From Lophium mytilinum (lineage: Eukaryota): 64,000 bases of DNA. The DNA is taken from contig MU004182.1 of NCBI GenBank assembly GCA_010093605.1, forward strand, positions 901,032-965,031, given 5' to 3'. Below are positions 4,912-64,000 of this stretch, piece by piece; the stretch's first letter is position 1, and each line of letters opens with the position of its first letter. The notes beneath the pieces were generated by a model. That model searched no databases. It saw only the letters and a list, made by a program, of their open reading frames with translations, and was not told the origin of the DNA. The translations under genes were made by a program, and so were the position numbers.

Positions 4912-5265
4912 GATAGTCGGCCGTTCGGTCTGTGATCTTGGGATGGCATGGCAGGCGTGAGAGTTTCATGGACAGGACTCCATGGTCGGAGTAAATATTT
5001 CCTTTCTGTTGGGGATTTCTGGTTTGGTGATACAGTCGCTTCGCATCGCATATCTGGCGTCTTCTTGGGCATTTCTGGGTCGGGGATGGAGTCTTTCTAC
5101 AATATGCATACATACTCTCGCACAGCGCAAGAAGCTGTCGCCAAGTGTCTTTAAAAATTCAAGATCTTGAAATACACACTTGGTATTGCACTACCGTGAT
5201 ATCTTGAACCGTGTTATCCATATAATGCTAGAAACGCCTGATCTCCCTCTTTCATGATCCCACAC

Positions 5266-10886: not shown

Positions 10887-12915
10887 TTAGATCCTGCCAC
10901 GCTCAAGGAACTTGTTGGGGATATCCACATATTTCGACCGGATGTACTCGCATAGATTCTTGCCCAAGCTGTCATAGCCACTAGTAGCATTGAAACCACG
11001 ATCTAGATGGTCGCGGAGAAGGAAGTGTACGGCGAGGATGTTGGGCATCTCAGATCGATCGATGTTCTTGCCCTTGTCATCCTTGCCCAGCAACTCACGA
11101 AGCTTCTCGACACTAAGCATCGTTCGGAACCACTCGTACTCATCGGCGTTGCGCACGAAGAGACCCAAGTTGGCGTTTGAGGACTTGTCACCAGATCGAC
11201 CCATCACGACGTAGCCTAGAGGAGCACGGGTAGTCGGGCCGAATTGTGATAGATCGACGGGGCTGCGGGTGTTGTATGTAGGTTGGTTGAAGTCGTATGT
11301 CTTCATCTGTGTGGGAGTAGGGATTTCGACGACGGTTCCATCAGGAAGATGAGCAGTTTCCTTGACGAACGACTGAGGCATCAAGCTGACCCAGTACTCG
11401 AAGAATGGCCGTCCAATGGCCTGGCGCATGTCTGGAGCCATGGTAGATCCTGGATAACCTTGGAGCAAGTTCTCAATACAGAAGCGGGCGAAAGAACCCC
11501 GATCGGAGTCGATCATAGCACCTGCGGATAAGAGATCGGGATCTTGGGTCTGGGCGAATATCCTCAAGTCGACGGTAGCCTCGTCCTGAGATTGTGGGTC
11601 TACTGGCACCGAACCAGCAATCTGGAACTTCAGGCAAGTAAATTTTTTTGCGTGGTCACCGAGAGCAGCCAAAGTTTGACGTTCGATCATCTTTGCCTTC
11701 TCCTCGATATTAAGACCGGTAAGGTAGAAGTGAAACTCGGCTTGGTAGCCACCCTTGGCGGTGATACCAACTAAGATACTTTGTTAGCGGTTTGTTGGGA
11801 ATTAGAAATAATAGGAACTGCGTACCTTTGGTGGTAGATGGGGCAGGCATGCCCTTAACACCAGAAACCTTGACGGCATTCTCTCCAACTTGTTCTAGCT
11901 TGACATCCTCGATATATGCGGTCACGTCTGAGTTGTAGTAGTAAGGACCCTGAATCTCGTACAGAAGCTGACTAGCAACGGTAGCGACATTGACAAGACC
12001 GTGCTTGCCCTTCTCCATTGTGATAACGGCCTCGCCGAGGTGGTCAAGAGCAGCAATCGGGTAGCCCATGTCGGTATCGTTGACGCCGAGGTCCTTGAAA
12101 CCGCTGTAGTAGCCACCTGTGGCATAGGTGCTGCACTCGATGATGTGTCCAACCATTAAAGCGCCAGCGAGCTCCTGGACGTCCTCTCGCTTCCAGCCGT
12201 GCCACCACATGGCAGCACCGACAATGGGCGACGCGTCAGCGACACGGCCGCAGACGACGATATCTGCTCCTCCCTCAAAGCAGGCTGCGATACCAGTACC
12301 TCCGAGGTAGCATTGGGCGCAGATCGGGTCGAATCCCCAGTCCTGAATGTTCTTGCCGGCGGGAAGGTTGGGGAAGTTCTCGCCTGTATCGAATTAGATC
12401 GTTGTTCGCCAGAAGCAACTTCTTACGGCTTACCCTTGTTGTACAACTCTAGCATGGCATCAGTGACATCGTCGCCATCCACATATCCAACCTTTAGATC
12501 GACACCGTGCTTGATAATCAACTTCTTGACTGCCTCTGCAAGACCTTGGACATCACTCGCACCGGCATTGACGCAAATCTTAGTCTTGTTCTTCGCTAAC
12601 CACGGGATGGCAGGGTCGAGCTCTTCCAAAAAGTATGGTTCGTAGGCAGCGCCAACTGCAGAAAGCTGCTTCTTGTTGAGTTTGTCCCGCTTGTCGGAGC
12701 CACGGAGGGTCATATTGCACTCGCTCATCCAATCTCCAGTGATGACATCGACTTGCGGCTCATTCTTGGCCATGTCATGAATGGCTCTTTTGCGGTCATA
12801 AACACCTGGACGGCAAGTCACATCAGTAAGTATGCTAGATAAAAGTAGGATATCTCTCACCTCCGGAGCATCCTGCCACATTGATGGGCCTCTTGTGGGT
12901 ACCGTTGGCAGCCAT
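10887..12915 (-). CDS. AtuA/DUF1446 (acyclic terpene utilisation family) protein, paralog 1 (4 exons)
   Basis: ATG at 12915; introns 12806-12860, 12384-12433 and 11771-11825. Motifs RPINVAGCSG, VITGDWMSE, GADIVVCGRVADAS, GHIIEC, QLLYEIQG and GRSGDK. Confidence 0.9.
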
Positions 12916-13402
12916 GTTGAACCAAGAAGACTGGGTATGTGTGAAAAGACTGAATTCAGGGGCAGGGTATCGTGACAGCTCTTAAAAATTCTAGTTCGAA
13001 AGTCGGAACGTAGTGTAGTTCAGGGCCGAGCTGGGCTTGAAAACAGCTTTATATCTCCTGAAAGATCTCAGCCCCCTTTGCCGACTTATCCATCTAAGAG
13101 GAATACGGCACATGACACCCCGCTATGCTTGAGATACCTTGCGGGGAGTATGCAGATAGAAGACGCCGGGGTTAGAAGTCCGGCAACAAAAGCTGGGCTT
13201 TCATGCAGGACCAGCTGGGGGGAACGTCTTCTGTACGGTAGACAATAGCCATACCAATCCAGGCCCAACACGAAGGAGTCCCACTGGGGTTGATTGGATG
13301 AGAATTTAGAGGTGGAGGGGTCGCGGGGTCGAGAAAATGTGGAGTGGCAACTGGTGGGACATGGCTACTGATTCATCCCGCTAATCACCATAATCCGAGA
13401 CG

Positions 13403-13417
13403 CTAATGAGTCATTAG
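13403..13417. promoter_or_regulatory. Palindromic cluster motif CTAATGAGTCATTAG, upstream of AtuA paralog 1
   Basis: Perfect 7-1-7 inverted repeat around a TGAGTCA (AP-1/Gcn4-type) core. Related copies occur at 17435, 22290 and 27340. Confidence 0.65.
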
Positions 13418-13649
13418 GCCACAATTCTGAGTGTACCCCGCGACTTTCTGACTTGTTAGACGTGCCGAAGACACGCTGGGAATCGATGAAGGGCCAGGCA
13501 CACATTCAAGGGCCGCGGATATACGTCGGGCCAGTCATTATCCCGTGAGCGGCGAGAAGTCTTACCACAACAGAGTAGTTTAATTCAAACACATTGCGCT
13601 GAGAATGAGCTATAGTTCTGTACAGACTTCTATGATATACGCGTCGTTC

Positions 13650-14431
13650 TTATAGGTTAGAAGACGGTCTCTCTTTGTGAAGGTAGCCAGCTACAACTTT
13701 GAGGAATGCAAACTTTAGGTTTGTCCTGATATCGCCGTACTTTGCCTTATTGTTTGTCACAGCTGCACTTTTCGCGTGGACATCCCAAAGATACTTCTCG
13801 CTCTCGTACACTTCGACGGTCCTGATGGTGTTTTCCTGATCCTTGTCTTTCAGGATTGCGTACGCCAATGTGCCTGGCTCGTTGTTCTGGCTCTCGGACG
13901 TGACGGCCTTCCAGCCGTCGAATGCGCCTGCTCTTGTCCCATCCTTATAATCGAGTGTCGCAAACACAATATAGGGATTGCTCGCCTTATTGCTTTCCGG
14001 TCTGGTGAAGGAGAAGGCAGTTTCCGTTGTGTAGACTTTCGTGGGAGCCGCGAACAGCGAAGTTTCCGTAGTGAAGGTCTTTATCAACTCTTGAACCGCA
14101 TCCGAAGCCAGGTGAGCGTCGACTGTGGCCTGGTCGGCATATCTAGGATGGTCAGCATGTTGTTGCCGTATTATTGCTTTATTGAACTAACTCTTCAATA
14201 GCGTAGACAGACAAGTCGTCCTGGGGATCAGTCGAAACTGTTACGGCGTATCTGACGACTCCAGGCTCCTGAGCTTGCGAGTAGTGGCCGACTTTGGTGA
14301 GCGCATCGATGAGCTATACGCCGGCATGTTAGTCAATCATCTACCGACAAGAGCTTGCTAGAGAGACATGCCTTCCGCTTGGCCTCTTTTGAAGCCGCAG
14401 CGAGATGCCCGATCACAACAATGGAAGGCAT
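13650..14431 (-). CDS. Tandem ABM/Dabb (dimeric alpha-beta barrel) domain protein (3 exons)
   Basis: ATG at 14431 (MPSIVVIGHL). Two repeats of the pattern EPG(V/T).Y..vYaiEEY.D/S...HL/HA. Two short introns near 14143-14191 and 14313-14373. C-terminus -SNL. Confidence 0.8.
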
Positions 14432-14938
14432 TTTGACGATTGAGCAGATGTCGAGGAGGAAAACGCCATCAAGGTGTCCAGCGATTCATTTTGTCCCCTC
14501 CACTAGGCTGCACGTGCGGACAAGCTAGCGGGAACGAGTTGCTAAAGCACGGCATCATAGGACCGTCGGAATGTGTCCAGGTGGGAGTCGAATGGGGTTG
14601 TGGGGAACTGCCTAAGGTGGAGGTCAAGGAAGTAGGTTCCCGAAGGTCACGTGCCGCTACAGCTTAGCGCTCCTGCGCTGTGATCTTTGCTTTTACCGAG
14701 CTTCTCTCCCCTTTCTCATCACATCCTCGATATGTCCAACCGTACGGAGTTAAGCATTTGCTTCTAGCTTACTCCTCCCACGGCCAGTCTGTCAGCAGCA
14801 CGTGGAAACAGAACACATTCAAAAAAGCGCCATAAAATGTGTAAACGACCAAGTGGCTAGCTTGAACAACTTTCATAAGAATACGGCTAGGCGATGCTTT
14901 CAGATGCTCGGATCTCTTCGATAGCAGATTGGGAGAAC

Positions 14939-16984
14939 TTAAACGACATCTTTCTCCTGAACGACATCATGCTCCAGATTCCCTCCGATGGTCTTGCCAT
15001 GCATCCTCCTCTCGATCTTGCTGGTAAGATGCTTCTTAGGATCCTTAGTAAACAGAGACCCAATGATGGCGATACCTCCGAAGCCCAGGGACGCCAAGTA
15101 GACTGTCTTGAACGCAGCCGCATACGCGAACGGAACAGAACCTGCTACTGCGGTGATGACGGCCGTTGTTATGCCTGGAACTTCCGCCAACTTTCCTGTG
15201 CTCACCGCTGCTAGTACTGCGGGAACTTCTGATGAGGGCAGCCCAGCTGCGACGGCTGCACCACCTACCATGGAAGGTAGGGTCTCAGACAGCCTGTTTG
15301 TCAAGATGGTCGAATACACAGCGACAGCAATTGATCCACCAGCTGCTCGGATTGATGCCAGCATGCCAGACGAAAGGCCAATGTCTTCTGCGTGGCAGAA
15401 CAGTGGGGCCATAGACAAAGCAGCAAGCTCGATAAATCCGACGAAGAACGGTCCGAGAATGGTGAATGCAATACCCATACTCTTCGTACTCGGTGTCAGG
15501 GACGAGAGGGCCGATACGAACGAGACCATCCCACAGGCTGATATGATTGTCCAATATCGAGCATTGCCGAAGTAGCGGATCATGCCTCCAGCGCATACCT
15601 GGCCGAGTGCCGTAGCGGCACTGACAGTGCACTGAAAACAGAAGGTCAGTGTAGCTCATAGAGAGCCTGAATGCTGCTGAATTGCTTACAGATAGCCATC
15701 CGGCATAATTCACATCACTAGTGTACATTGTGGAAACCTGTTGTGGCCCTGTCGCATGGGTCAGCTTTGATTCATGCACTAGGAGTGCTATACTCACATA
15801 GAAGAACGGCTGAGTAGTAGAACATGCTAGCGACGGTTGCGCAAGTTACCAAGCTGATGAAACCTCGGTTTCTGAAGAGCTTCATTGGCATCAAAGGATA
15901 TTTTTGATTCCCGAAGGCCTCCCAGCAGCCGAACGAAATCAGTAGAACTACACCAATCACCATGGTACTAATCACGGCTGCAGATTTCCATGGGAACAGC
16001 CCGCCTCCCTATGTTTTCACGGTTAGAAATCCGAGATATTAAACGTACAAATCGCAATACTGGGTTAGAAGAAAGACTTACCCAGGAAAGACCCATCAAA
16101 AACAAAGTGAGGCCAGAGATCCACAAGAACATGCCGACAAAATCCAATTCCTTAGCTTGAGACATCTTTGATTTGTGCTCGTGCAACATCTCGAAAGTTG
16201 GTGGATGGTAGAAGAAGAATAGGAGGACGACAGCCAAACCGGTAGTAATTAGGTTAAGGTAGTATGTCCATCTCCACCCTAGGGAAGGGTCCTGGATGAA
16301 TGCTCTAGCGATTTTTGGTCCAAAGGTGGCAATCGGTGCTGATGTCGCGAAGATAAAGGACATGACAGCAGGGCGGTACTTATTTGGTACCAATTCGCCG
16401 ACTGCGACGCCAAAGCTGAGCTGAATGCATTCTCCGAGACCATAGACCACGCTCGCGAGAATCAAAGCTGTGATGTTCTGAGCTGTGCAGCCTACGATAA
16501 CACCGATGAAGCAAACGACATTGCCACCGATGAAAAACCAGCGACGTCCTGCTTTACGTTAATTACTGCCGAGCGAGAGCTGAGGAGGCAGAACTGACCA
16601 AACAAATCACTCAATCGACCAGAGACCAAGAACATGCAGCTTTCAGCCAGAGTTCTCCCAATATTGACCCATGCAATGTTCTTGTCTGGCCCGATGTCTT
16701 CATTGATGTAGGTCAAGACATTTGTAGGCAGGATTAGGAAGATGTAGGCCGACATTTGGGCAAGACAGAGTCCCTTTACGCTGTTAGAACGGGATCTGCA
16801 AAGAGAGAGTGAGAAGAGTTCTTACAGCCATCGTTCCTAGGAATGGTAGACTGTAAAAGTAATTATTGGGTATAGTATCGCCACGCGCCACCTCATTGAT
16901 GGAAAGAGTCTCCTCTTGCGAGGAGGTCTCGTCTTCAACAATTTCGTTCTTTTCTGCCATGTTCTTATGGGATTGCGGATCCAT
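14939..16984 (-). CDS. MFS transporter, Tri12 (trichothecene efflux pump)-like, multi-exon
   Basis: GRLSD.FGRRWF MFS motif A across an intron, GELVPNKYR, GWRWTYYLNLI, FFYHPP, LDFVG, LMPMKLF, RAAGGSIA and AYAAAFKTVY. About 6 introns. The start may be 16984 or 16960. Confidence 0.88.
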
Positions 16985-17434
16985 GTGGACCGCGTACGAG
17001 ACGGGGGAGGTACTGCTCGACGTTGACGCGTTGGAGAGGAAAGGAAAGCCCAAGAGCTCAATTAGGGAAAGATGTGCGAGTATCAAGGGACGACAGAGAG
17101 CTGTGTGGAAGTGATGTCTATCACAATGCCCAGAGAACTAGTCTCATGACCAGGAAGGGAGCTCCATACATATAGCAAACGCCTCGTCCTTAGTCCCTCG
17201 CCCTCATTTGGCGTAATCTCAGGGCCTACGGGCATTCTAAACACCCTGAGCGCCTATTCGGTCCCCGCATCCTCCGGGGCCTCCGCACGTTCTCTAAGCG
17301 ATGATATGGGGTTTGGGGATAATAGTGGGGACCGGGGAAACCCTGCAGGTCAATATGGTCACCGACGAGCCCGGAAAACGATTTGCAGATCGTAGCGTGC
17401 CTCGAAAATGCCCTTTCGACTCATGTCTTGCAGG

Positions 17435-17448
17435 CACTAATGATTCAG
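17435..17448. promoter_or_regulatory. Partial cluster motif CACTAATGATTCAG, upstream of the MFS gene
   Basis: 13/14 identical to the reverse complement of 27340-27353. Further (T/C)GACTCA-like cores lie nearby at about 17418, 17459 and 17538. Confidence 0.55.
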
Positions 17449-17732
17449 GTGAAGCAATTGACTCAGGTAAAGCGCTAGAGGAGGCGACGACGAGTCAATG
17501 GAATCCCGAATTAGCGCCACCGCAACATCACTCGCCGACGACTCAGCAGAACGCGTCGCAAAGAGCTCTACCATTCGTGCCACTTCTTCCGATGCACAAC
17601 CTCAGGTCTCATATCACATGGTTATGGATTCTTCTCGTTCTTCAATAAGATAGGCTAATCTAACAGTCATCTTAGACTTTCAGACATCTACAGTAGCTAG
17701 TCTTCCTGCGAGGTGAACCCAAAAGACAGTCA

Positions 17733-18612
17733 TCAGCAGATCCATCCACCATCAACTGAATGTATCGCCCCTGTTATGAAAGTGGACTCGTCGCCTAGAA
17801 GGAAGGCTACCAAACTTGCTACCTCTGATGGCTTCCCAGGCCTATTCAGTGCAGTATGGGCATAATTATCAAAAGTGACATTTGGGTTCCCGGCTCCCGC
17901 GATCTCTCGTGCCTTGGCGACCATTGGAGTCTCTATCGTTCCACTAGATCTCCTTTCAGCTTTCACAATCTTAGTTCGAGCGTGGTCGTATCACTTACGG
18001 AGCAATGGCATTTACCCTGATGCCTTTAGACCCCATGTCTTTTGCGGCACTTCGAGTAAGACCGACCACGCCATGTTTACTAGCTGAATACGAAGCATTC
18101 TTCGCTCGGCCTGATATGCCCGCCACTGAAGCAGCATTGACGATGGAGCCACCATTTTCCATGTTCTGGAGCTGCGCTCTTTGGCAGTACCTGTCGAGTC
18201 GCCAAGTTAAGACCCATATTATTAGGGGAAAATGTGGCACTAACATTAGACCGGTAAGGTTGACCCCGATTACAAAATCCCAATCAGAATCTTCAATCTC
18301 CGCAGCCGTTTTTATGCCAATAGCGTTCCCAGTCACTCCAGCCAGATTGGCAGCACCATTCAATTTTCCAAACTTCGAGACCGTTGCGTCGATCCACGCG
18401 TCTACCTGCTTCCGGTCCCGGACGTCCATTTTGAACGTCATGACCTCTCCACCTGCAGAGCGGATCTCCTTCGCAGCTTCGTCTAATGGTCCTTCCTGCA
18501 CATCCCCGATGGATACCTTGGCGCCCCTTGAAGCTAGTAGTTTTGCTGTAACGAGGCCGATGCCAGATGCGCCACCAGATACAACAATCACCTTGTCCTT
18601 TAGAGAAGACAT
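17733..18612 (-). CDS. Classical short-chain dehydrogenase/reductase (3 exons)
   Basis: SGGASGIG, NLAG, catalytic S..YSASK, IRVNAIAPG and ITG..HSVDGG. The Asp after beta2 suggests NAD(H) preference. Introns about 17933-17998 and 18192-18245. Confidence 0.92.
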
Positions 18613-18983
18613 TGTATTGGCTTGGATAGTGGCGGAACTGCCTACGATTTGAATTGAATAAAGCGGCCCCTGCAGCTTGCGCCGTGCGGAGTACGTCAAG
18701 GACCGAGCACTACCACCAGTAGCAGATTGTGGAGAAAGGAAAGTATTGCCGAGTTCAAAATACTACATCGTCAAGTACTCGCAGTTGCACTTGTCAGCTT
18801 TATGGAGCAATGTTCGGCAACTGGTTGAAATCCCCGCGTCCAAAGCTGGATAATGTCTCCCGATCACGTGCTTTAGCACTTACACAGCTCCACTTACTCG
18901 TAATTTTAGTATCCGCATCCCTTTTAGAGGATCTTTGCGCCTGTATCAAAGTGACGGTATACAGTACGTCTCCTTTAGTCGCG

Positions 18984-21010
18984 ATGCCAGCTTCAAAGAT
19001 ATACCGTTCGAACTATCCCCGTCCTCATGTTCCGACAAATCTCAGTATATCTCAATATCTTCAGCTATACAACCCAGATGATGCAGCCGCCGACAAAACT
19101 ATCTTCCAAGACGATTGGACGGGAAAGAGTCTAACATATTCTGGGCTGAGAACTCAAAGTGCTAAAGGCGCCTTCGGTCTAAGACAGTTACTCAATCTGG
19201 AGGAGGGAGGAGTTGGTGTGTTGTAATCTTCCCTACATTCGTGCCGTTCACACCGTTTAATTTCTCCCAGTGCTCATATGCGCTCCGAACTCAGTAAGTG
19301 AGCCCTCGGCACGGCATTTCGAGCACTCCGGACTGATGAAGCAATTAGGTGGACGTCGTACTATTGATTCATGCAGTCTTGTGGTGTGGTGGGACTGCAG
19401 TGTAAGCTCGACAGGCAACTAGAACGCCCCAGATTCTGATGCTCCGCTTTTAGACTTGTCAATCCGCTTAGCACCTCGTACGAGGTAGCCCACTGCCTCG
19501 GGATATCTGAGCCTAAGATCCTAGTCGCCGACTCGAGCACATGGCCAACCTTGTTCACTGCAAGTCAGACAGTCCCGGCGGCTGGGACATTCGCCACGTT
19601 GTCTCTAGATGCAGGACCGTGTCCCTTCCCGTCGGTATGTCCTTCCTGTCTCACCTTCCCCGCCCTCGAACTAAGCTGATAGCTTCCAGGCTATTCGTCT
19701 ACCCCAGATCTTCCAGACTAACAATGCCTTACCACCTCTGGACTTGTCAGAGCGGGACAGCCGCGATTATACGGCATGCGTCTGCTTTAGCTCTGGAACC
19801 AGTGGCAAGGCGAAGGGAGTGGAGCTGTCCCACTACAATCTCGTTGCGTCCATGGCAGGGATCCGATCGTCGGATACCACTCTCTGGAACGAGACTATCA
19901 GACAAGTTTTCTTTGCCCCTCTATGCCACATATATGGTGCGTGACGAAGTGGTCTGAAGAAGCTAAACTGATCCTAATCATGGCATAGGACTCGTGAGTG
20001 CCGCTCTGATGGGAGCATCGATTGGCTACTATACCATGTTGATGAAGAAGTACACACTAGGAAGACTTCTCGAGCTCTCTGCGAAAGTTAATGCCAATAC
20101 CCTACGCATCCTTCCGACCATTGCGGTTGCGATCACTAAGGATCATGGGTTCGACCTCGCACAGTTACAGAGTATCAAGTTGATCATGTGCGCTGGAGCA
20201 ACATTGCCCCCGAAGATCATCGAATTCTTCAATCAACGGTTTCCGGGCGCTCCTATCTTCCAAGGCTATGGAATGACAGAAACGAACATTACCACTCTAA
20301 GACCTGAGCAGGCTCACATGATAGGCAGCGTCGGAAAGCTTTTTGCTAACCTCGAGGCTAGGTTGGTCGACGATGATATGAATGACGTGGAGTTTGGCGA
20401 GGAAGGCGAGATGCTCCTCCGTGGGCCGACAGTCTTTCGCAGGTATATGAAAAACCAGGCAGCCACAGATGAGACCTTCCATGAGGGCTGGATGAAGACC
20501 GGTGACATTCTGCGGTCCGATGAAAATGGGTTCTTCTATCTGACCGAACGCAAGAAGGTACGTCCACCGGAAAGGGAGAGAGGTCTTTCGCTAATGCCGT
20601 GTCTAATAGGAATTGATCAAGTACAAAGGGTATGCAAGCTCGTTGTAGTTGAGAGAACATCTAACTGATTCGATTCTAGTAACCAAGTTGCACCGGCGGA
20701 ACTCGAAGCGTACCTTGGAGGCCACCCTTACGTTAGAGAGTGTGCTGTATGTGCACTTTGGGATGAAGACCAGGGCACTGAAGTTCCCATCGCATACGTC
20801 GTTTTGACTGATGAAGGAAGAGCGGCGAGCGAGAACATTGCTTCCACGCTGGCAGAGATCCAGAAGCACGTCGACAGCAAAGTCTCGCCCTACAAGAAGC
20901 TCAGAGGAGGTGTCGTAGCACTCGACGAGATACCAAAAACGGGCACGGGCAAGGTGCTCCGACGTCTGCTGCCCGCAAGACTAGCAAAAGAACGATCATC
21001 AAAGCTTTAG
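18984..21010 (+). CDS. 4-coumarate:CoA ligase-like acyl-CoA ligase 1, peroxisomal (-SKL), multi-exon
   Basis: FSSGTSGKAKGV, QGYGMTE, KTGD, ELIKYKG (20-nt micro-exon 20610-20629), VAPAELE and IPKTGTGK. Ends in SSKL. Confidence 0.92.
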
Positions 21011-21042
21011 AAATATACAATTACAAGTTCCACATCACACCC

Positions 21043-21879
21043 CTATAACCTGCTAGCCTTCCACACTGGCGATCGCTTCTCACTAAACGCCTTCAACCCT
21101 TCCAGTATATTTTCACCCTTCTGCAACTCCGCAAACTCCCTATCCATCGTGATCCCTACCGCCTCCTCCACCGCCGCCGTCTCCCACCCCTGCCTGATTC
21201 CAGCCCGCGTACAGATAATAGCATCAGGACTGTTCACCGCAATCGCCGTCGCGTACTTGACCGCCTCCGCTACCAGCTCACTCTTCGGCACAACCTTATT
21301 CACAAGTCCCCACGCCAGCGCCTCCTTCGCCGTGACATTCCGCCCCGTCAGCGCAAACTCGCTCGCCCGCTGCAGCCCAATCGTGCGAATAAGCCGTGGT
21401 AGCGCGCCCCCGATCGGCGAGATCCCGCGCTTGACCTCCGGCAGGCCGAAGTACGCCTCCTCGGCCGCGACCACGAGATCGCAGTTGACGATGAACTCAG
21501 TCCCGCCGCCCATCGCGAGGCCGTTGACGGCCGCAATCACGGGCTTCTTGCCGAGCCGTCGCGAGAGGGGAGTGAAGGCTGGCGCGTTGCCCATGCGGCT
21601 GTTGGGGTCGGCGTCGGCGTCCATGGAGGAGTTCCATTCTTTGAGGTCGGCGCCGGCGCTGAAGGCGCGCCCGGTTCCTGTGATGATGGCGACGGAGAGG
21701 TTGGGCTCGGCGTCGAGCCATTTCCAGACGGCGTCCATTTCCCATTGCGCGGTCGTGTTCATGCAGTTGAGGTCTTTGGGGCGGTTCATGGTGATGAGGA
21801 GGACGCGGGGCGCGGGATAGGAGAGGAGGAGGAAGGTGGGTGTTGGTGGTGGAGGGGTGGTGGTTGGTAGAGAAGCCAT
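21043..21879 (-). CDS. Enoyl-CoA hydratase/isomerase (crotonase) 1, peroxisomal (-SRL)
   Basis: Intronless. AFSAGADLKE, KPVIAAVNG.AMGGGTE and FGLPEVKRG (both catalytic Glu present). Ends in ASRL. Confidence 0.93.
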   Translation of the reverse strand: MASLPTTTPPPPTPTFLLLSYPAPRVLLITMNRPKDLNCMNTTAQWEMDAVWKWLDAEPNLSVAIITGTGRAFSAGADLKEWNSSMDADADPNSRMGNAPAFTPLSRRLGKKPVIAAVNGLAMGGGTEFIVNCDLVVAAEEAYFGLPEVKRGISPIGGALPRLIRTIGLQRASEFALTGRNVTAKEALAWGLVNKVVPKSELVAEAVKYATAIAVNSPDAIICTRAGIRQGWETAAVEEAVGITMDREFAELQKGENILEGLKAFSEKRSPVWKASRL

Positions 21880-22289
21880 TGTGGGATGCTGGAGGGAGAG
21901 GGTTCACGCGTAGTGAGAGGGTTATTCTGATGGTAAGAAAGGAAAATGTTCCAACGCTGAACCAATGAACGCTGGTACAATCTAACGCTGTGACTTCGTT
22001 GAATAGCAAGCAATGCGAAGGAATGAAGAAAACCAGGTGTGGTGTTGAGAGTGGAAAAGTACCGCGAGTCATGAGAATTATTGCAAAGAAACGACAATCA
22101 GTCTCACGATTCGTGTGCAGACCTCGGGAGACCCTGCTAATGCACTGTAGCAGGCGCCTCTACCGTGCCGTCTCGACGGGTGTAAGACTCCGTAGGTGGC
22201 GGCAGGCGGTGAGATAAAGATGGAGGACGAGTCGTGGAGTACCCCACGGGGAGCATTAGTCGCAGGTGGAGACCCTTTAACCCCGTTCA

Positions 22290-22304
22290 CTAATGATTCA
22301 TTAG
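22290..22304. promoter_or_regulatory. Palindromic cluster motif CTAATGATTCATTAG in the divergent ECH1/AtuA2 promoter
   Basis: Perfect 7-1-7 inverted repeat, 14/15 identical to 13403-13417. Confidence 0.65.
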
Positions 22305-22590
22305 CGTCTCTCCCAATTGCGGGGAAGAAGCCGCAAACCACCCACGCCGCGATCTGCCAACGCGAAACTGCATCAAGTCATGCTCTTGTTCCTGCTTGGC
22401 GGCGTCAAACTGACTCTCGCTGTCCCCTCATTCATGCCAGGTGGAGGGGAGCACGGGTAGAACGGCGACGGCGACGGCGTTACTTCAAGGCAATGCTCCG
22501 CAGGCACTGCGTAGGTAGCTTGTTCTATCAAAATATATCGAAGTCATACCACAATCACCTTTCTTATCGTCCCTTCTCGAAGTATCCGAG

Positions 22591-24450
22591 ATGAGCTCCC
22601 AAAACACCACAACACGTCGGCCCATCCGCATAGGCAATGCCTCCGGCGCAATCGGAGACGGCATTGACCAGGTCTACCGCCTCGCTCGCGACGGCAACGT
22701 GGACGCAATTACGGCCGACTACCTCGCAGAATTCAACATTGCCTGGAAAGCGATTGAGTTGACTACGGAGCCAGACCTGGGGTACGAGCCCAACTTTCTC
22801 GACCAGCTAGCATGGCAAGATGGCGCCGCTGCGAAGCTGTTGCGGAGGAAGAGAATCAAGGTTGCGCATGACGGTGGAGCGTTGAACCCCAAAGGGCTGG
22901 CCGAAAAGGTTCATGCCTACTTCTTGAGCTTAGGCATTGAAGACATGAGGATTGCATGGGTCAGTGGTGATGATGTGACAGCGTTGGTTAGGGGGGAGAA
23001 CTTTGGCGCACTACAACACTTGGATTTGCGAGGGGTAAAACTGGATGTCAAGACTGAAAAGGTGTTAGCCGCCAATGTATACACTGGACAAGCAGGTGTG
23101 GTGCGGGCCCTCGAAGCTGGGGCTGACATTGTCATCTGTGGGAGGTGTTGCGATGCCTCTCCAGTCATGGGTCTTGCGTATTGGTGGCACAACTGGAAAT
23201 CCACGGACTACGATGCCATGGCAGGAAGTCTTATCGCTGGACACCTCATCGAATGCGGAGCGTATGTGACGGGAGGAAACTACTGCGGGTTCAAAGAGAT
23301 TCCTCAACGCTACTCCTTCGGGTACCCCATCGCCGAGATAGCTGCAAATGGATCCGTGGTTATTACCATGCCAGAAAACAGCAACGGAGCTGTGACCGTG
23401 GACACCACCAAGGCACAGCTGTTGTACGAGATTCAGGGGCCCTTCTATCTCAACGCCGACGTTATAGCTCGCATAGATGGTGCTGTTTTGGAACAAGTGG
23501 GAAAGAATAGGGTCAGACTGTCTGGAATCAAAGGATCTGCACCACCTCCGACATCAAAACTAGCAATCAGCCTCTTTGGCGGTTGGCAAGCCGAGCTATC
23601 AGCATACAGTGCAGGGCTGGATACTGTAGAAAAATTCGACATGATGAAAGATCAAGTGCGACGATACATCAACCCGGACGAGTTCACGACTTTCAGCATG
23701 GAGACATACGGAGTAGCGCCTCAGGATCCGAAGTCCCAAAAGGAATGCACAGTGCAGCTTCGGATGTTTGCCCAGGCACCGGAGAAGGAAGCGATAACAG
23801 AGTTCAAAAGAGCAATCCTTTACAATGGTATCCAGGGGTATTGCGGGTTACATCTGCATATGGACTGGAGGACGATGGAGCCGCGGATGTATCTCAAATA
23901 CTTTCCAACTCTTGTCCCGCAAGATGGTACTCCGCTGGCAGTCCATTTCGTAGGCGAGCCGGGCAACGTCTTAGATGTACCCGCAAAGCGGATCGAGGAT
24001 TGTGCGGAAGAGGTTCCAGTGCAGCCAGACTACGAGGGAAGGCATCAAGCCGTGAACCTAGCCACTTTCGGAGAGACAGTGCGTCGTCCTTTCGGCGATC
24101 TAGTCTTTGGGCGTTCGGGTGACAAGGGCGGAAACGCTAATGTTGGTATCTGGGTAAGAGACGCCAAAGCCTGGCCATGGCTTCAAAGTTTCTTGACCTC
24201 AAAGAAGGTGAAAGAGCTGCTAGGCGATGATTGGAGTGAAAAGTACTCGGTCGAGCGATGCGAATTTGAGCATCTAATGGCTGTCCATTTCGTGGTCCGC
24301 GGAATCCTCCAAGATGGCGTCTCTAGCAGCAGTATCTTGGATGGGTTTGGCAAGAGTTTTGGGGAGTTCATTAGGGCGCGATATGTAGATATCCCGAAAG
24401 GTCTTCTTGAAGTTGAGCAAAGGAGGAGACAACCTCAAGCACAACTTTGA
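22591..24450 (+). CDS. AtuA/DUF1446 protein, paralog 2 (intronless)
   Basis: RPIRIGNASG, ITADYLAE, GADIVICGRCCDAS, GHLIECG, QLLYEIQG, GRSGDKGGNANVG and AVHFVV..L.DG. Ends in AQL. Confidence 0.93.
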   Translation: MSSQNTTTRRPIRIGNASGAIGDGIDQVYRLARDGNVDAITADYLAEFNIAWKAIELTTEPDLGYEPNFLDQLAWQDGAAAKLLRRKRIKVAHDGGALNPKGLAEKVHAYFLSLGIEDMRIAWVSGDDVTALVRGENFGALQHLDLRGVKLDVKTEKVLAANVYTGQAGVVRALEAGADIVICGRCCDASPVMGLAYWWHNWKSTDYDAMAGSLIAGHLIECGAYVTGGNYCGFKEIPQRYSFGYPIAEIAANGSVVITMPENSNGAVTVDTTKAQLLYEIQGPFYLNADVIARIDGAVLEQVGKNRVRLSGIKGSAPPPTSKLAISLFGGWQAELSAYSAGLDTVEKFDMMKDQVRRYINPDEFTTFSMETYGVAPQDPKSQKECTVQLRMFAQAPEKEAITEFKRAILYNGIQGYCGLHLHMDWRTMEPRMYLKYFPTLVPQDGTPLAVHFVGEPGNVLDVPAKRIEDCAEEVPVQPDYEGRHQAVNLATFGETVRRPFGDLVFGRSGDKGGNANVGIWVRDAKAWPWLQSFLTSKKVKELLGDDWSEKYSVERCEFEHLMAVHFVVRGILQDGVSSSSILDGFGKSFGEFIRARYVDIPKGLLEVEQRRRQPQAQL

Positions 24451-24832
24451 GGTCCACCCCAGACATGGACGAAATGAGAAGTTCTACTTAACACCATTGA
24501 AGAGAACGCAACGCATAGAAGTAGTGATGAAGTTGAGAGGTTGATCGCGAGTCTGGTCTTGATTGGTCTGTCGATGACGACAATAGAACAAATGCTCTAG
24601 TGCCGCCGAGTGAAGGTCCGGAAATGCTACACCGACCCCACATCCCCTCCCATCTTCCACGCCCACCCATGCCGCGACCGTCGACATTACCTAGGCAATC
24701 CGAAAGCGGCATGGGCTCTCTTGACGTCTTCCCCGGGCTGAGGCCGGTTGAATTCATAGCTACCTTCTTGACCGACTCTTTACTTACGTCGTTGCGTACA
24801 TTTGCTACCCAAAACATTCTCGAAAAGCACCA

Positions 24833-25968
24833 ATGACCTCCTCAAGTGACAAGGTCGTCAAGAACGCCGCCGGTCGGTATGACAACGTTGATTTCAAGAA
24901 GGCTATAGGGTACAAGTACGCTCCCATTAAGGCCGCCTATCTTCGACGCGATGTCCTCCTTTTCGTACGAAACTTCTCCCCAAACCCTCACTATACTAGT
25001 ACTGATTGTCAAGCAGGCCAACGCAATTGGAGTAACCAAAGACGAGCCACACTTTCTCTACGAACTACATCCCAAATTCGCAGCCTTTCCTACCTTCCCT
25101 ATAAATCTAGCATTCAAGCAGGATGACCAAGACGTGTTCGACTTCATCCAGCGAACCGTGTCAGCCGACGTACCCGGCGTCCCCCCATTCGACCCCAAAA
25201 GATCCGTAGATGGCGAGCGTGGCATCGAGATCATTCGGCCGATACCCACGTCCTCAAAGGGCCTTGACTTGGAGATCAATGGCTCGATCGTTGGAGTGTA
25301 CGACAAGGGAGGCAACATGATACTGGAAGCCGAGCATCTGCTGCGGGACGCGAAGACAGACACCGTCTATGCGAAATTGACCAACGTAGCGTTCGGGATC
25401 GGACAGGGCGGATATGGGGGCCCTCGAGGACCCGCTACTAAATCTTACCCGCCTCCAGAGCGTGCACCAGATGCAGTGCATGTCTTCCAGACGTCGCCGG
25501 AGCAGGCGCTCTTGTATCGGCTGTGTGGGGATTACAACCCGATACACGCTGATGATGAGTTTGCGAAGGCTGGTGGGTTCAAGGGCGCTTTCATGCAGGG
25601 CTTGGGTACTTGGAATATCGCGGCCCATGGTATCCTGAGGGAAGCTGGCGGGAGTGATCCGGCACGGTTTCGTAGCTTCAAGGCGAGGTTTGCGAATATC
25701 GTGTACCCTGGTATGTTCCGCTGTAACTCTTGTTGTCTCGAAGTGCTAACTTTGTCTAGGTGATGCTCTGGAGACGCGTATGTGGAAAGTAGGGACAAAC
25801 GATGGAGTAGATGAGTTCATCTTCCAAACAATAGTCCAATCAGACGGACGTATTGCCCTGTAAGTCTAGATCATAGAGTAAGACGTTCTACACGAAGCTA
25901 ATGGCGAACCCAGATCCAATGGTTTTGCTACCATTAACCAGGCGAGTCCGCTGAAAAGTAGTCTTTAG
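24833..25968 (+). CDS. Peroxisomal MaoC-type (R)-specific enoyl-CoA hydratase 2 (hot-dog fold; 4 exons)
   Basis: YELHPKF..FPTF, VDGER and the hydratase-2 motif LYRLCGDYNPIHAD; ARF..VYPGD. Introns about 24965-25016, 25712-25759 and 25860-25913. Ends in KSSL. Confidence 0.9.
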
Positions 25969-26061
25969 CCTTAAATCTAATGCATATCTTGTCTCCATAC
26001 TCAGAAATGAAAAATATATAATCTTGAAAAGGTCTTTCAAATCATCTAGGATATACAACAT

Positions 26062-27041
26062 CTACAAATACGAAGGCAACCACCTCGGATCCCTCTTCTC
26101 CCTATACGCTGCCAACCCCTCCGCAGCATTCTTACTCCTCAACATAGCCTCACTATATATCTCCTGCCCTCGCATCGTCGCGCGACTAACGCCTGTTTCC
26201 CACGCTTCTCGTGCCGCCAGCCTCGAGATGATAACGCTATCAGGGCTCTTCTCCGCAATCTCAACCGCATACGCAATGGCCCTCTCAAGCAACTTCTCCT
26301 GCGGTACAATCTCCTTCACCAATCCCCAACTCACCGCCTCCTCCACCGACATCCGTCTCCCAGTCAGGATCAGATCCATAGTCCTGTGATTTCCAAAGAG
26401 AAGCATCGCCCGCGGCAGAGCACCAGCAAGCGCAGAGACACCTCGTAGGACCTCTGGGAGGGCGAACGTAGCGTTTGGCGACGCGAATATCACGTCTGCG
26501 TTTAGGATTGCCTCGAAGCCGCCTCCTGTTATCGGTATCAGCATCTACCATGCAGTAATCGGATTCCTTTCGAGATATGAGGCCTACCGTGTGCGTGTCC
26601 ATTACAAGCCACCACAATCGGCTTCTTGCCCGTCCGATTGCTCATCCCCGCGAATCCGCCGTGCGGGTAGTCGTGCGCAACGTCGTTGGTTTTGATGAGG
26701 TCGAGGCGCTGCTTGAGGTCCATGCCTGCGCAGAAGGCCTTTTTGCCAGCCTATCTCCCCAACCTATATAAGCTTTTCCTCCCATACGATCTGATGTGGA
26801 TGTATATAGCACTTACGCCCGTGAACACCGCACATCTAAGCTCCGGCTCTGCATCGTACCACTTCCACAACGCACCCAGCTCGATGGTCGCTTCGACAGG
26901 GAGGCAGTTCATGTACTGCGCACGGTTTATGGTGACTTGGAGGATGTGTTTCGCCGGGAAGGAGATGAGCGAGTGCTCCACGCGGGGGTAAGGGTTTTCG
27001 AGCCACGCGGGGACGGGGTCTTTGGTGCGTGGGGTCGTCAT
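26062..27041 (-). CDS. Enoyl-CoA hydratase/isomerase (crotonase) 2 (3 exons)
   Basis: AFCAGMDLK, KPIVVACNG.AHGGGFE and FALPEVLRG. ATG at 27041; introns about 26526-26587 and 26751-26816. Ends in SYL. Confidence 0.9.
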
Positions 27042-27339
27042 CGCGGAAGGTAGATGTATCAAATGGAAGCAATTGAACAAGCTGGGTGTATGCTCTCCAA
27101 TTGACAAGATACGAAGAAATGCGAAAACCAACAAGAAGAACAGAAATCCACGATCGTCCAACGCGCCAAAGCCTCGAAGCCTAACTTCTGTTCCGCTCCA
27201 CGGGTCATCGACGCATGCATCCTGCACCGCTGAATCGCTAAATCATACCTCGGCGCTTGCTTGAATCATTGCCCTTAGTGAGGCACTGCGGCGGTGTACC
27301 TGGGGTATCTTTTTCCCACAGTGACGGCGGCTCTCGGAA

Positions 27340-27353
27340 CTGATTCATTAGTG
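27340..27353. promoter_or_regulatory. Partial cluster motif CTGATTCATTAGTG in the divergent ECH2/ligase-2 promoter
   Basis: Its reverse complement CACTAATGAATCAG matches the copies at 17435 and 22288. Confidence 0.55.
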
Positions 27354-27679
27354 GGATGCAGGGTGCGTGCAGGGGTAGCTAGGATGCGCGCGGGGCGGCT
27401 GGGGTAAGCTATTGTGGGGCACGTTGGCAAGCGGATATCAGAACGCGGAGGTGGAGAGGTGGGGAAGAAGCGGTGCGAGTAAGGTGTTTACACAAATGTA
27501 CCTATGTACGACAGTACCGTGGGGTAGGCTGCGGAAAGGACGGCTTCGAGGTGGACGAAGCTCTTCGTCACCTCGTTGGAGCTGTTTTTCTGGTTGGAAA
27601 GCTCGTTGCTGCGTTGTGATCGTGAAGTTTGAGCATCGCGATCTTTTCAATTCGTCATCAAACACTCAATCCAGCCGAA

Positions 27680-29518
27680 ATGCGCGTCTACAAAGCCCCC
27701 CAAACCATTGACATCCCTCAAGACCTTAATCTCACCGAGCTCCTCCACACAAGCAACGACCCACCTCTCCCTCCTTCCCACCTCATCACGAAAGATAGCC
27801 TTACCAACCGGAGCATTACCATCGGAGAGCTTCGCCAGCGTGCAGGAAGAATAGCAAATGGACTGAACTCGACTCTCAAACCCCACGATCAGAGCAGGTG
27901 GGCTGTGATTCTGCCAAACAGCGTCGAGTATCTGGAGGTCTTCCATGCGGTGCTCTGGGTCGGCGGAGTGGCGTGCCCTATAAATCATGCTATCAAGGCG
28001 GAAGAGATTGGCCATGCGTTTTCGGTCACGAGGCCAGATTTCGTTATCGTATACGGGCCAGCGCTATCGAAGGTGCTCGAAGCAGTGGAGGTTGCCAGGA
28101 GGGAGTTGGCTACTGAGGGAGTGACATGGGATACACCTAAGATTGTGACTGTGATTGAGAGTGCCGATGGATTTAAGCATATTCCTGACGACTTTCTTGC
28201 CCCGGAGAAATTAGCCATTCCGCATTTCAGCGATACGAAAAGGTGAGCTGTGGTGTTGAGAGATAGTCAGACTGTGACTAAGCTAATCTGGTGGTCAGCC
28301 GTCTCGCAACAATACACCTCTCATCTGGAACTACGGGCAAACCAAAAGGCGTAGAGTTAACACAGTAAGTAGATCAACGTAGTAGTTGGTGCTGATGCTG
28401 ACATGATTTCAAGCTTTAATTTCGTATCCAACGTGTATCAACTTCGTGCTCACGACCCGGCACAGTTCCACCGTGGCAGCCGTGTTGTTGCCTTTACTCC
28501 ATTCGCGCACATCGGAAACACAACAATACCCTTATTTCTCGGCCCGTTCATGGGCATGATGCATCATGGTGAGTTATACGTAAACTCATGTCTAGTTCCT
28601 TGCTAATTGTGGCGCGAAATAGCCATGCCTGCGTACGATCTTGAAACATTCGGACAGCTTGTAGATTCAAATAAAGCCACGATATTCCAGGGTGTTCCCT
28701 CCGTTGTTCTTTCGTTTGCGAATACGGACATTGCCGATAGGTTCGATTTTTCAAAGGCGGAAGTAATAAACGTCGGTGGACCGCCTTTCAAACGGGACAT
28801 GCTTGAAAGGCTGTTGAATAAGGCGCCATGGAGGTTGAACCAGGTTTACGGGATGACGGAAGGCGCTGGGTATGTTGCGTACCAGAGATCTACCGACAAT
28901 CAACTGGAAGGGGTCGTAGGGCCTCTAGTGCCAAACATAGAAGTAGCGTTGCGTATCAACGAGGGAAAAGATGATGCGCCTGAAAACGGCCCAGGCGAAC
29001 TATGGTTGAGGGGCCCCAATATTACGAGGGGATATGCTTTCAACACCGAGGCAAATCAATCGGCGTTCCCCCAGGAGGGATGGTATAATACAGGAGATGT
29101 TTGTACGGTTTCAAGAGATGGGGTGATCGCGGTGGTCGGGCGGACGAAAGAGCTGATCAAGTACAAGGGCTTCCAAGTGAGCCCTGCCGAGCTGGAGTCG
29201 TATCTCAACTCCCATTCCCATGTTGCTGAAGCAGGTGTGGGGCCTGTGTTTGACGAGAGCCAGCTCACGGAGCTACCGACAGCGTACGTAATCCTGAAGG
29301 ATCATTTAGTCCTTGAGAAGGATAAAAGAACGGCTTTGAAGGAGATTCATGCAACGGTGGATGACCGCGTGAGTGGATATAAAAAACTCAGAGGCGGTGT
29401 TTGGGAGGTGAAACTGTTGCCCAAGAACCCAACGGGCAAGATCCTGAGGAAGCAACTCCAAGACCACAAGTCGGGTCTGAGTTCTCTAGATAGAGGGGAT
29501 AGAAGATCAAAATTGTAA
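27680..29518 (+). CDS. 4-coumarate:CoA ligase-like acyl-CoA ligase 2, peroxisomal (-SKL; 4 exons)
   Basis: HLSSGTTGKPKGV exon (about 28299-28363), QVYGMTE, NTGD, GRTKELIKYKGFQVSPAELE and LPKNPTGK. Ends in RSKL. Confidence 0.92.
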
Positions 29519-29636
29519 AGAGAATGGGGACGTCGTACCAATACAAAATAATGCAAGCCGCAAAGCACGACAAAATGCCAGAGTCCTACGGACAAGTACA
29601 CAATCAGTCGGTGCTGTGGTGGTGTATCTGAAACCC

Positions 29637-31030
29637 TCAAGGATTCGAGTGAGACCATTGAGCCGTGCCACCACATGAGGAAGCTTTCTTAAACTCGTCT
29701 ATTCTAGCCATATTCCATCCCGAGTCCCAGGTCAACTCTGTGTCCCTGTCCGGTGACTGGCTGTGGCCCAGACGAAAGTGGTGAGCAAGTTGGCAAGTTG
29801 TGTTGTGGTGAACGTATTGGAAACAGTAGCGGTCGGTATTGCATGCGTCTTTACATTGATCCAGAGTCTTGTCAAACAGTGGTTTAGGATTCACGCCATC
29901 GTCTTCCGACATATTCGTCCAGTTGTAGGCTATCGGGGTGATAGAGGGCTCTACTATTGCACCATACAGCTCTTCAAAGAGCAGTGGTGTCTAGCAGTGT
30001 GAGCACGTGCCCTCGGGAGGTTGATTAGAACTCGTTATTAAGAACTCACAGTTGAATTTCTCTTCATTTCCCAATCCCACAGGTCGCCCACATCCTTATC
30101 GCTTAAGTGGTGAAGTGTGATGATAGGCTCACACCATTGCTCCGGCCCAAAACGAAGTGTAGAGACCTTCTCTCCGTTTATCAGCGGCCAGTAACCCTTC
30201 AAAGTGATGCCGATGTCTTTGAATACTCTAGCTAGGACTTCGTCTCCGCAGCATTCTCCCTTCATATCCAGTCCAAATTGATGGTTGCCCACAGAGTATT
30301 CGTCTCTGAATTTCCGGCCATATGATGCCAGCTCTCCAAGTGCTTTCCGGGAGAGGATCAACCCACTACCGCCGTGACCGAAGACAGGCTTCTTCGCGGG
30401 CCACACGGGAGATCCCATATATAACGGCTGCTCGGGATCCAGATGCGAGAGGAAGCGCAAAAGGTTATCCCAGACAACATACGTGTCTAGCTCAATAAAC
30501 ACATACCAGTCTTTCTGCCTCGGCGTCTTCCATGTTAACTCCATCATGGGCAAGAACTTGTATTTGTCCAGCTTCCAGCCGTCCCCGCTCTTGCCAACAC
30601 GCTGGCCCGACGCCTTCTGCTGCTTGATGCTGTCATAGATTTTGAAGTCCGGGTTGTCGTGCTCGTATTGCTCGGAGAAGTTCTCGAGCGCATCGATGAG
30701 GTGATGGCCGTGGGCAGTTTCCTCGAAGTCGGAGAAGATGAGAAGGTCTGGGACACACGAGGTGACAGTACGGAGGTGAATTGGAAGCTTGGATTCGACC
30801 TCGCCTGCACCAAGCTTGAGCACAACTTGGATCTTATCGAATGCATGCTTGGGCAGCGCTTTGCAGGCATCAAGCGCCGAGTGATTCTTGGATAGCAGGT
30901 AGGCGGCGTCGTCCCATGTGTCGAAGCCGCGCGGGCCGGGTAGTGAAGGTATTGATGGTAGGCCAAAGTACGAATAACATAGAAATGCGATGAGCACTGT
31001 GAGCACGAGCCTGCGTGGTCTGTTCTTCAT
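29637..31030 (-). CDS. Glycosyltransferase family 31 (Fringe-like) type II membrane protein (2 exons)
   Basis: N-terminal TM, GWKLDKYKFLPM, WYVFIELDTY, HGGSG..LS, CCGD..LA and WCEPIITLHH. Intron 29991-30049. Cys-rich C-terminal module. Confidence 0.88.
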
Positions 31031-62983: not shown

Positions 62984-63103
62984 AGCGCCTACCGGGGCGG
63001 TAGTAGTATTCTTAATATCTAGGCCTAGATAACTATACTTAGCGCCTACCGGGGCGGTAGTAGTATTCTTAATATCTAGGCCTAGATAACTATACTTAGC
63101 GCC
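62984..63103. repeat. Exact 57-bp tandem duplication (about 2.1 copies)
   Basis: 62984-63040 is identical to 63041-63097, followed by a further AGCGCC. Confidence 0.95.
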
Positions 63104-64000
63104 CCTCTATAAACTATAGAAATCTATTTAACTAAATATTAGTATAGTTATAACTACTATTAGATTAATATCTAAACTTAACGGCCTAAATTTATATCGC
63201 CGCTAGAGTAACTAAATAGAACGGGCGTTAAGAATTAGATAATTTTAGGGTTTTATTAGTAGTGCCTATAATTATTTTAGCTCTAATAACCTATAGTTTA
63301 TAAAGATAGATAGCTAGTATAAGAGTCTACTAGAGTAAGGCTATAAAGAAGAAATATAGCTATTAGTAGAAGAAGTAAGAATATTTAAGAAGTTATAGAG
63401 TCTTTTAGAAAAAAAGTATATATAGAAGGGGGGTATAATATACTATACTCTTTAATAGTATTAGTATAGGGCGACTTATATAAACCTTAGGTTAGTAAAA
63501 GCTTTTATTAAAGAGCTTAAACTAATTTAAGATTACCTCCGGGCCCTTTATTTAAATTATATAAAGAAGGGTTTTAAAGTTAACTTCTAGTTCCTAAATA
63601 ACCTTAGTACCTAGTTCTAATACTTAGTTACTATAAAATTAAATAAACTAGCTATAATTAACCCCTATAAGTCTATAGACTTTAACTACCTAGCCTTATA
63701 GTTTATTAAGGAAGAGAAGCGTATAGAAGTAAAAGAAGACGCTATTACTACTATAGCCTAGTATACTTATACCGCGCTTATAGTAATAATACCCGCGGCG
63801 GCAAGTACTAGGTTAATAGCTATAGTAGAGAAAGTAATAACGCGCTTTAAGAAAGTAAAGAGTAAGCTTTTCTATAAGTATTATAAGAAACCCGGATATA
63901 TATAGAAAGTTAGATTTACTAGTTACTAGAATTACCTAGATAATAAGAAATACTATCCCGCTAATAGAGTTAATAAGGGTAGAAAGGGGGGTAAGAAAAG

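Follow-up and report, generated by a model that had tools for sequence, protein, structure and literature searches.

How might a fungal gene cluster encoding two AtuA-family enzymes be switched on as a unit? The question is raised by 64,000 nt of Lophium mytilinum DNA (Mytilinidiales, Dothideomycetes), referred to here in its whole length as the window, in which four promoter intervals of such a cluster share a motif built on a TGA-N-TCA core with outer CTAA arms. Two of these intervals are bidirectional, and the four together adjoin six genes: AtuA1, AtuA2, two enoyl-CoA hydratases (ECH1 and ECH2), an acyl-CoA ligase (ligase 2), and a major facilitator superfamily (MFS) transporter. Judged from the sequence comparisons described below, the motif is a real, conserved, and non-random cis-element of the AP-1/IDI-4 kind with extended arms, at which a regulator protein very likely docks. 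An initial annotation of this DNA had proposed a shared functional element bound by a dimer, an inference that the present analysis supports.

The four motif strings named in that annotation were all present and all intergenic: CTAATGAGTCATTAG at 13403, CACTAATGATTCAG at 17435, CTAATGATTCATTAG at 22290, and CTGATTCATTAGTG at 27340. The annotation had described a palindrome in all four promoters, a description that held for two and has to be reduced to a core with one arm for the others. Main site 1 (13401..13417) is the full palindrome CG-CTAATGAGTCATTAG, located ~495 bp upstream of the AtuA1 ATG and behind the stop codon of a gene with an ABM domain. Main site 3 (22288..22306) is likewise a full palindrome, CA-CTAATGATTCATTAG-CG, and lies between the divergent ECH1 and AtuA2 genes, its centre being ~418 and 294 bp, respectively, from their ATGs. 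Main site 2 (17435..17447, plus strand) consists of the core and one arm (CACTAATGATTCA) ~460 bp upstream of the MFS ATG, and main site 4 (27341..27353, minus strand) of the core and one arm (CACTAATGAATCA) between the divergent ECH2 and ligase 2 genes, with its centre ~303 and 336 bp from the respective ATGs. CRCTAA is common to all four.

The recurrence of the motif was compared with chance in several ways. Perfect 15-bp palindromes (CTAATGANTCATTAG) occur at two of the four main sites (13403 and 22290), against 0.0001 to 0.0002 expected; the sites at 17437 and 27337 have 3 mismatches to CTAATGANTCATTAG, and 3 unrelated window sites are equally close. With up to 3 mismatches allowed, 7 matches to CTAATGANTCATTAG were counted in the window where 2.34 were expected, and 7 was reached in 1 of 100 shuffles. 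This mismatch count is a weak test, and the post hoc choice of motif was therefore allowed for by a shuffle test on 11-mers: one 11-mer with a single wildcard is common to 4 of the 7 cluster promoter intervals, a number that none of 300 dinucleotide shuffles reached (maximum, 3 intervals). The common string CRCTAATGANTCA has exact matches at +13401, +17435, +22288, -22306, and -27353, that is, five in the four intervals and none elsewhere in the window, with an expected count of 0.008 to 0.016 (Markov orders 1 to 3). The annotation, too, had noticed the extended motif nowhere else in the window.

Three weaker second cores, which the annotation had missed while listing the main sites correctly, lie 18 to 80 bp from the main sites (centres at 13372, 17462, and 27265). 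These are CTACTGATTCAT in the AtuA1 promoter (13365..13376, plus strand), TGACTCA in the MFS promoter (17459..17465), and TGAATCATTGC in the ECH2/ligase-2 interval (27262..27272). With 7 TGANTCA cores in 4,186 bp, the cluster promoters have approximately elevenfold the density of the remaining 59,814 bp of the window, which contain 9 (binomial p = 3.5e-5). No TGANTCA core was found in the intervals of the window that serve the ABM-domain gene, the short-chain dehydrogenase (SDR)/ligase-1 pair, or the MaoC gene, in whose promoters the annotation had not noticed the extended motif. A separate 12-mer, TGCTAAAGCACG, occurs at 14540-14551 and again in opposite orientation at 18867-18878 (E = 0.07 to 0.12, not significant alone); it occupies two intervals without the main motif, those of ABM and of SDR/ligase 1.

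The annotation had named a lack of conservation in orthologous promoters as grounds for rejecting the element. A metagenome scan returned 79 loci, mostly at 34-41% identity, with 3 close fungal orthologs among them; 2 of these came without an upstream region, and usable promoters were provided by one locus, L002. In two further contig collections (genome and viral contigs), no relative was found. L002 (9,596 bp) encodes ligase 2, AtuA2, MaoC, ECH2, ECH1, and MFS at 62-79% protein identity to the window and in a rearranged order. Its AtuA2 is 99.8% identical to a protein of Coniochaeta hoffmannii (Sordariomycetes), and in a FastTree tree of 33 chosen rows L002 groups with Coniochaeta, the window AtuA2 being separate from it. 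When window and L002 promoters were aligned, 28 of 28 pairs stayed inside the shuffle range; a longer conserved block near ligase 2, spotted by eye, was not significant when tested. Because the promoters are unalignable and the gene order is rearranged, the motif, where it recurs, has been preserved apart from its context.

A scoring matrix was trained solely on the window's four sites and then applied to L002, where its top 4 matches all fell in promoter intervals. The best, CTACTGATTCATTAG in the MFS promoter at 7727 (score 20.1), is the counterpart of main site 2 and begins with the same 12 letters as the second core CTACTGATTCAT. The ECH2/ECH1 promoter carries GACTGAATCATTAG (score 15.3) and a second site (10.0), and the ligase-2/AtuA2 promoter carries CAATGATTCATTG (score 11.9), a site (TCATTGCCC) that the second core TGAATCATTGC resembles. 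The best scores of the MFS, ECH2/ECH1, and ligase-2/AtuA2 intervals were reached in 0, 0, and 2 of 300 shuffles, respectively, and the MaoC interval, as in the window, lacks the motif (286 of 300 shuffles reach its best score). A score of at least 15.3 was found at 0 of 63,964 other window positions and 0 of 869,250 positions in the other 78 loci; at least 11.9 was found once and 10 times, respectively. All 4 TGANTCA cores of L002 fall within its promoter intervals, which make up 3,124 of 9,596 bp (p = 0.011). The gene pairs that share a promoter differ between the two loci, and ligase 2, AtuA2, ECH1, ECH2, and MFS have an upstream site in both. The motif is thus kept in 3 of 3 orthologous motif-bearing intervals while the flanks diverge, and this recurrence, seen in a single outside locus, is the strongest evidence for function. 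In locus L001, the AtuA2-MaoC interval has one TTGATTCAT core and no arm. In locus L018, a motif-like ACTATTGATTCATTAAG (5133-5149, score 15.1) precedes an AtuA gene of 40% identity by ~4.9 kb.

The cluster promoters of the window and L002 supply 11 cores, in which the inner TGA-N-TCA is invariant and either arm is dispensable. The centre is T in 6, A in 3, G in 1, and C in 1 of them, and is free in the manner of the IDI-4/JlbA site. Most half-sites have A or C directly beside the core, and the arm reads CTAA, CTAC, or GCAA. TGA(C/G)TCA fits 2 of the 11 cores (1 of the 4 main window sites and none of the 4 L002 cores); plain CpcA is for this reason a poor fit, as the annotation had argued. Its further argument, that a tolerated central base speaks for a dedicated factor, is not supported as put forward, because ATGAnTCAT, with the same tolerance, is described as the site of the basic leucine zipper (bZIP) protein IDI-4 in the portion of that report consulted (PMC4835503). 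The conserved outer arms fared better: exact CTAA/TTAG arms accompany 2 of the 4 L002 cores but none of the 81 cores from the remaining 78, mostly bacterial, loci and none of the 7 window cores outside the cluster. By this comparison, the arms carry signal beyond the IDI-4 9-mer. An RNA hairpin was rejected by inspection, as the second arm is missing in half of the sites. The FarA hexamer CCTCGG has a single occurrence in each of 2 window intervals (of 7) and 2 L002 intervals (of 4), and the CreA consensus SYGGRG occurs in all; neither was used as evidence.

Several explanations of the motif can be weighed against these data. One would deny it any function and regard it as chance, or as what remains of a promoter duplication or gene conversion between the members of the paralog pairs AtuA1/2, ECH1/2, and ligase 1/2. 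The AtuA1 and AtuA2 promoters do agree at 20 of 21 bases at the site, which is oriented alike relative to both genes; the match, however, extends only ~4 bases beyond the consensus, the window promoters gave no alignment at E <0.1 beyond the motif, and the two AtuA proteins are 30-51% identical by piece. The MFS promoter, moreover, has no paralog counterpart, and the motif is found again in a member of another class, the Sordariomycetes, in promoters that do not align. This explanation is largely refuted, and we give it hardly any weight. Alternatively, the sites might be ordinary general-control or stress sites, bound by CpcA/Gcn4 or by IDI-4 as a global starvation factor, with incidental arms and the cluster as one of many targets. 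Main site 1 holds a perfect ATGAGTCAT and the second core at 17459 is TGACTCA; in the consulted portions of two reports, a broad set of Podospora genes shows enrichment of ATGAnTCAT (PMC4835503), and amino-acid starvation triggers JlbA and CpcA responses (PMC9031554). A centre of A or T in 9 of 11 cores, CRCTAA at every main window site, and the excess of exact arms in L002 (p ~4e-4 at a rate of 2/256) all speak against it, and we consider it improbable.

A third possibility is a real cluster site with a dedicated binder of another class, either a Zn2Cys6 protein with a non-CGG site, as for QA-1F and XlnR, or a homeodomain dimer on TAAT-N5-ATTA. Ligand-sensing Zn2Cys6 factors usually run the catabolic clusters of filamentous fungi, and the arms contain TAAT and CRCTAA, which resemble homeodomain and XlnR half-sites. 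Among 18 long hits, moreover, 13 are gene models that join a Zn2Cys6/Fungal_trans domain to an AtuA paralog (in Fusarium, Seiridium, Stachybotrys, and Thyridium; P0160-P0168, P0171-P0173, and P0175). With Zn2Cys6 genes thus next to AtuA paralogs (40-58% identity) in fungi other than the present one, AtuA loci can have such neighbours. The fused AtuA proteins are paralogs, however, matching AtuA2 at 37-44% identity and AtuA1 pieces at no more than 55-58%, where true AtuA1 orthologs reach 70-98%; long models of true orthologs are fused instead to MaoC, MFS, ligase, TauD, or peptidase. A canonical Zn2Cys6 site has fixed CGG/CCG outer triplets and a free spacer. No common CGG triplets were found among the present sites, and the inner core is their fixed part. 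With that core fixed and one arm dispensable, a bZIP dimer making extra flank contacts is preferred over a Zn2Cys6 dimer, and a binder of another class seems unlikely, if less so than the general-control reading.

The explanation that we favour, and hold to be reasonably probable, is an AP-1-type bZIP site in which the arms act as a specific code and through which an unlinked factor switches on the six cluster genes; counting ordinary general sites as well, a binder of bZIP type is likely overall. The site would be a TGA-N-TCA pseudo-palindrome with a mostly A/T centre, the half-site consensus (C-R-)C-T-A-A/C-T-G-A, and at least one outer arm kept. Its binder, acting as an activator from the four promoter intervals, would be a bZIP-type dimer whose gene lies elsewhere in the genome, either of the IDI-4/JlbA class or an uncharacterised relative reading the extra flanks. 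Of the genes so regulated, that of the MFS transporter would provide uptake or efflux, ligase 2 CoA activation, and ECH1 and ECH2 hydration, and AtuA1 and AtuA2 would break a C-C bond in a tertiary 3-hydroxy acid or acyl-CoA. The proposal builds on the motif sequence and its non-randomness, on conservation in one distant cluster, and on gene content, C-terminal ends resembling a peroxisomal targeting signal type 1 (PTS1), and a fold match; from these we infer protein binding, the bZIP class, activation over repression, action in trans, and the pathway with its substrate.

Besides the Zn2Cys6 fusions already described, a number of observations weigh against this explanation. Four cluster genes (ABM, SDR, ligase 1, and MaoC) lack a site. 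The full ATGANTCAT 9-mer is present in 3 of 11 cores, with 7 others off at one end and 1 at both, and C replaces A beside the core on one side in 5 of 11. The L002 ligase-2/AtuA2 site has arms reading CAATGA instead of CTAATGA, the footprint comes from a single outside locus, and the backgrounds for the matrix scores are mostly bacterial DNA (47,594 positions being eukaryote-like). As to the pathway, VDAG_02121, an AtuA paralog of Verticillium dahliae whose locus number is nine away from that of the AtuA1 ortholog VDAG_02112, is described in the consulted portion of one report as mitochondrial and dispensable on citronellol (PMC13399572), which calls for caution in reading a substrate from the family name.

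A more far-reaching form of the bZIP proposal is tentative and, in our estimate, somewhat doubtful. A hitherto undescribed, dedicated, and unlinked regulator would read a Maf-like extended AP-1 site, CRCTAATGA-W-TCATTAGYG; its control of a two-AtuA peroxisomal pathway would predate the split of Dothideomycetes and Sordariomycetes; and nucleotide-dependent C-C lyases would degrade branched (terpenoid or resin-derived) acids. If this were true, the same consensus would name the rest of the regulon across Pezizomycotina.

The gene labels of the initial annotation agree with Pfam, which confirmed AtuA1, ABM, a TRI12-family MFS, SDR, ligase 1, ECH1, AtuA2, MaoC, ECH2, and ligase 2. AtuA1 (10887..12915, minus strand) carries PF07287 and PF23544, has three introns, and ends in GRI, with no PTS1; its last exon shows 100% identity to a Lophium mytilinum protein. 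AtuA1 is followed by the ABM-domain gene (13650..14430, minus strand, start approximate), the MFS transporter (14939..16984, minus strand), the SDR (17733..18612, minus strand), and acyl-CoA ligase 1, an AMP-binding enzyme ending in SKL (18984..21010, plus strand). ECH1 (21043..21879, minus strand) ends in SRL; AtuA2 (22591..24450, plus strand) is intronless, encodes 619 aa, and ends in AQL. The MaoC gene, which resembles MFE-2 hydratase 2 (24833..25968, plus strand), ends in SSL. ECH2 (26062..27041, minus strand) and ligase 2 (27680..29518, plus strand), which ends in SKL, complete the cluster. The annotation had stated that no transcription-factor gene lies in the cluster. In the whole window, none was found among 44 open reading frame pieces searched by Pfam, and six-frame patterns gave 4 matches, none a credible domain, although intron-split domains may escape this search; for relatives, the cluster surroundings were covered through fused gene models.

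Three sequencing runs carry the locus, none of them recorded as RNA. Spliced contigs of one, X3, back the introns of AtuA1, ABM, ligase 1, and MaoC; the ABM intron (14313-14372) has CT..GC ends, corresponding to a GC-AG intron on the minus strand. Contig depth in X3 is unfit for ranking genes, and its contigs give neither strand nor transcript ends. The run shows 1 listed difference from the window over 19.5 kb; being nearly identical, it is uninformative on conservation. The X3 AtuA1 contig has ~605 letters upstream of the first listed joint (window 12858-13460) and, if ungapped, would cover site 1 via a long leader or read-through from ABM. Another X3 contig spans ligase 2 with its introns kept (27467-29294) and has a joint at 29292-29538, whose CT..AC ends mark a minus-strand intron. 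Positions 27467-29640 are thus likely to hold, on the minus strand, a long antisense 3' extension of the adjoining Fringe-like gene over ligase 2; this putative extension ends ~115 bp short of site 4. At the far end of the window (62001-64000), the G+C content falls to 27-30%, compared with ~52% window-wide, and resembles repeats degraded by repeat-induced point mutation (RIP) or an AT-rich block.

AtuA2 has, according to its predicted model, the fold of an ATP-binding citramalate lyase. The model (mean pLDDT 85.6, pTM 0.90, 51 sequences) matched 9erq_A with Z 29.0 (root-mean-square deviation 3.1, 319 aligned, 16% identity), the next row having Z 7.1. Foldseek gave E 5e-18 to 9evf_A and a weak hit to the small chain (TM 0.70 when normalised by target length, E 0.17). 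The single solved family matched comprises entries titled citramalate lyase, with AMPPNP/citramalate or ADP/pyruvate, and no sequence-level match to AtuA2 was found in the PDB. The match to these recently solved entries (9ERQ/9EVF) offers a clue to how AtuA/DUF1446 enzymes in general work chemically. AtuA is expected to cut a C-C bond following hydration at the branched carbon of an acyl-CoA, as stated in the consulted part of one paper (PMC13689101). The cluster probably serves to degrade branched organic acids. In the likely route, the substrate would be taken up, activated with CoA, hydrated at a branched carbon, and cleaved by AtuA; that it is a branched or terpenoid acid is a guess. AtuA2 homologs mostly end in ARL, AKL, GKL, SRL, and similar, and AtuA1 orthologs in GRI/GRV. 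By the PTS1 rule, the C-terminal ends suggest a mainly peroxisomal pathway.

The two-AtuA cluster is widespread, and uncharacterised, in many plant- and wood-associated ascomycetes. Adjacency outside the window was read from accession or locus numbers rather than DNA: identifiers of AtuA1 and AtuA2 orthologs are 2-8 apart in several Dothideomycete, Sordariomycete, and Exophiala-type genomes. The gap is 8 in Polyplosphaeria, Lophiostoma, and Trematosphaeria, 7 in Paraconiothyrium, 5 in Patellaria, 2-3 in Verticillium, 2 in two Neonectria species and Neoarthrinium, and 8 in Microdochium and Exophiala (own numbering). Fused gene models join AtuA2 to MaoC, to ligase, or to MaoC and MFS. The AtuA paralogs fused to Zn2Cys6/Fungal_trans point to other AtuA loci with their own regulators. 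A 2026 paper, in the portion consulted, describes AtuA proteins as reported in bacteria only and the atuA-H homologues of V. dahliae as unclustered (PMC13399572).

A specific and conserved element of 13-19 bp could serve as bait for the regulator, as a probe for regulon members, and as a reporter in a screen for the inducer; the inducer would in turn point to what the AtuA enzymes of fungi act on. In regulatory terms, the site varies a known type and is neither a new mechanism nor a new kind of system. A literature search found no paper on the cluster or the extended element; the arm string itself was not searched for, and subscription journals and motif databases were mostly outside its scope.

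Among known systems, IDI-4 of Podospora anserina, ZIP-1 (NCU08055), and JlbA, which we take to group with IDI-4, offer the likeness of an AP-1-type pseudo-palindrome with a free central base. ZIP-1 is homologous to IDI-4, according to the consulted portion of one report (PMC10241597). The present sites differ in their conserved outer CTA/TAG arms and in the choice of A or C beside the core, and the IDI-4 targets described in the part of the literature consulted are incompatibility and autophagy genes rather than a catabolic cluster (PMC3689799). CpcA, Cpc-1, and Gcn4 share the core, and differ by the A/T centre and the extended arms of the sites described here. BIP1 of Magnaporthe oryzae is, in the consulted portion of its report, an unlinked bZIP protein that activates a gene cluster via GCN4-like sites in a bidirectional promoter (PMC10833574). 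It requires TGACTC, is asymmetric, and has other targets; of TGACTC and CATGACTCG, the four main sites hold GAGTCA in 13403 only. The extended AP-1 sites of Maf (Maf recognition elements) are alike in joining an AP-1 core to symmetric flank contacts, but their flanks are TGC rather than CTAA and the family is animal. Finally, the Pseudomonas atu cluster likewise places an AtuA-family gene beside hydratases and a CoA ligase. The Lophium cluster differs from it in being eukaryotic, in its PTS1-like ends and two AtuA paralogs, and in including neither a carboxylase nor an acyl-CoA dehydrogenase; in bacteria, atu is under the control of the TetR repressor AtuR.

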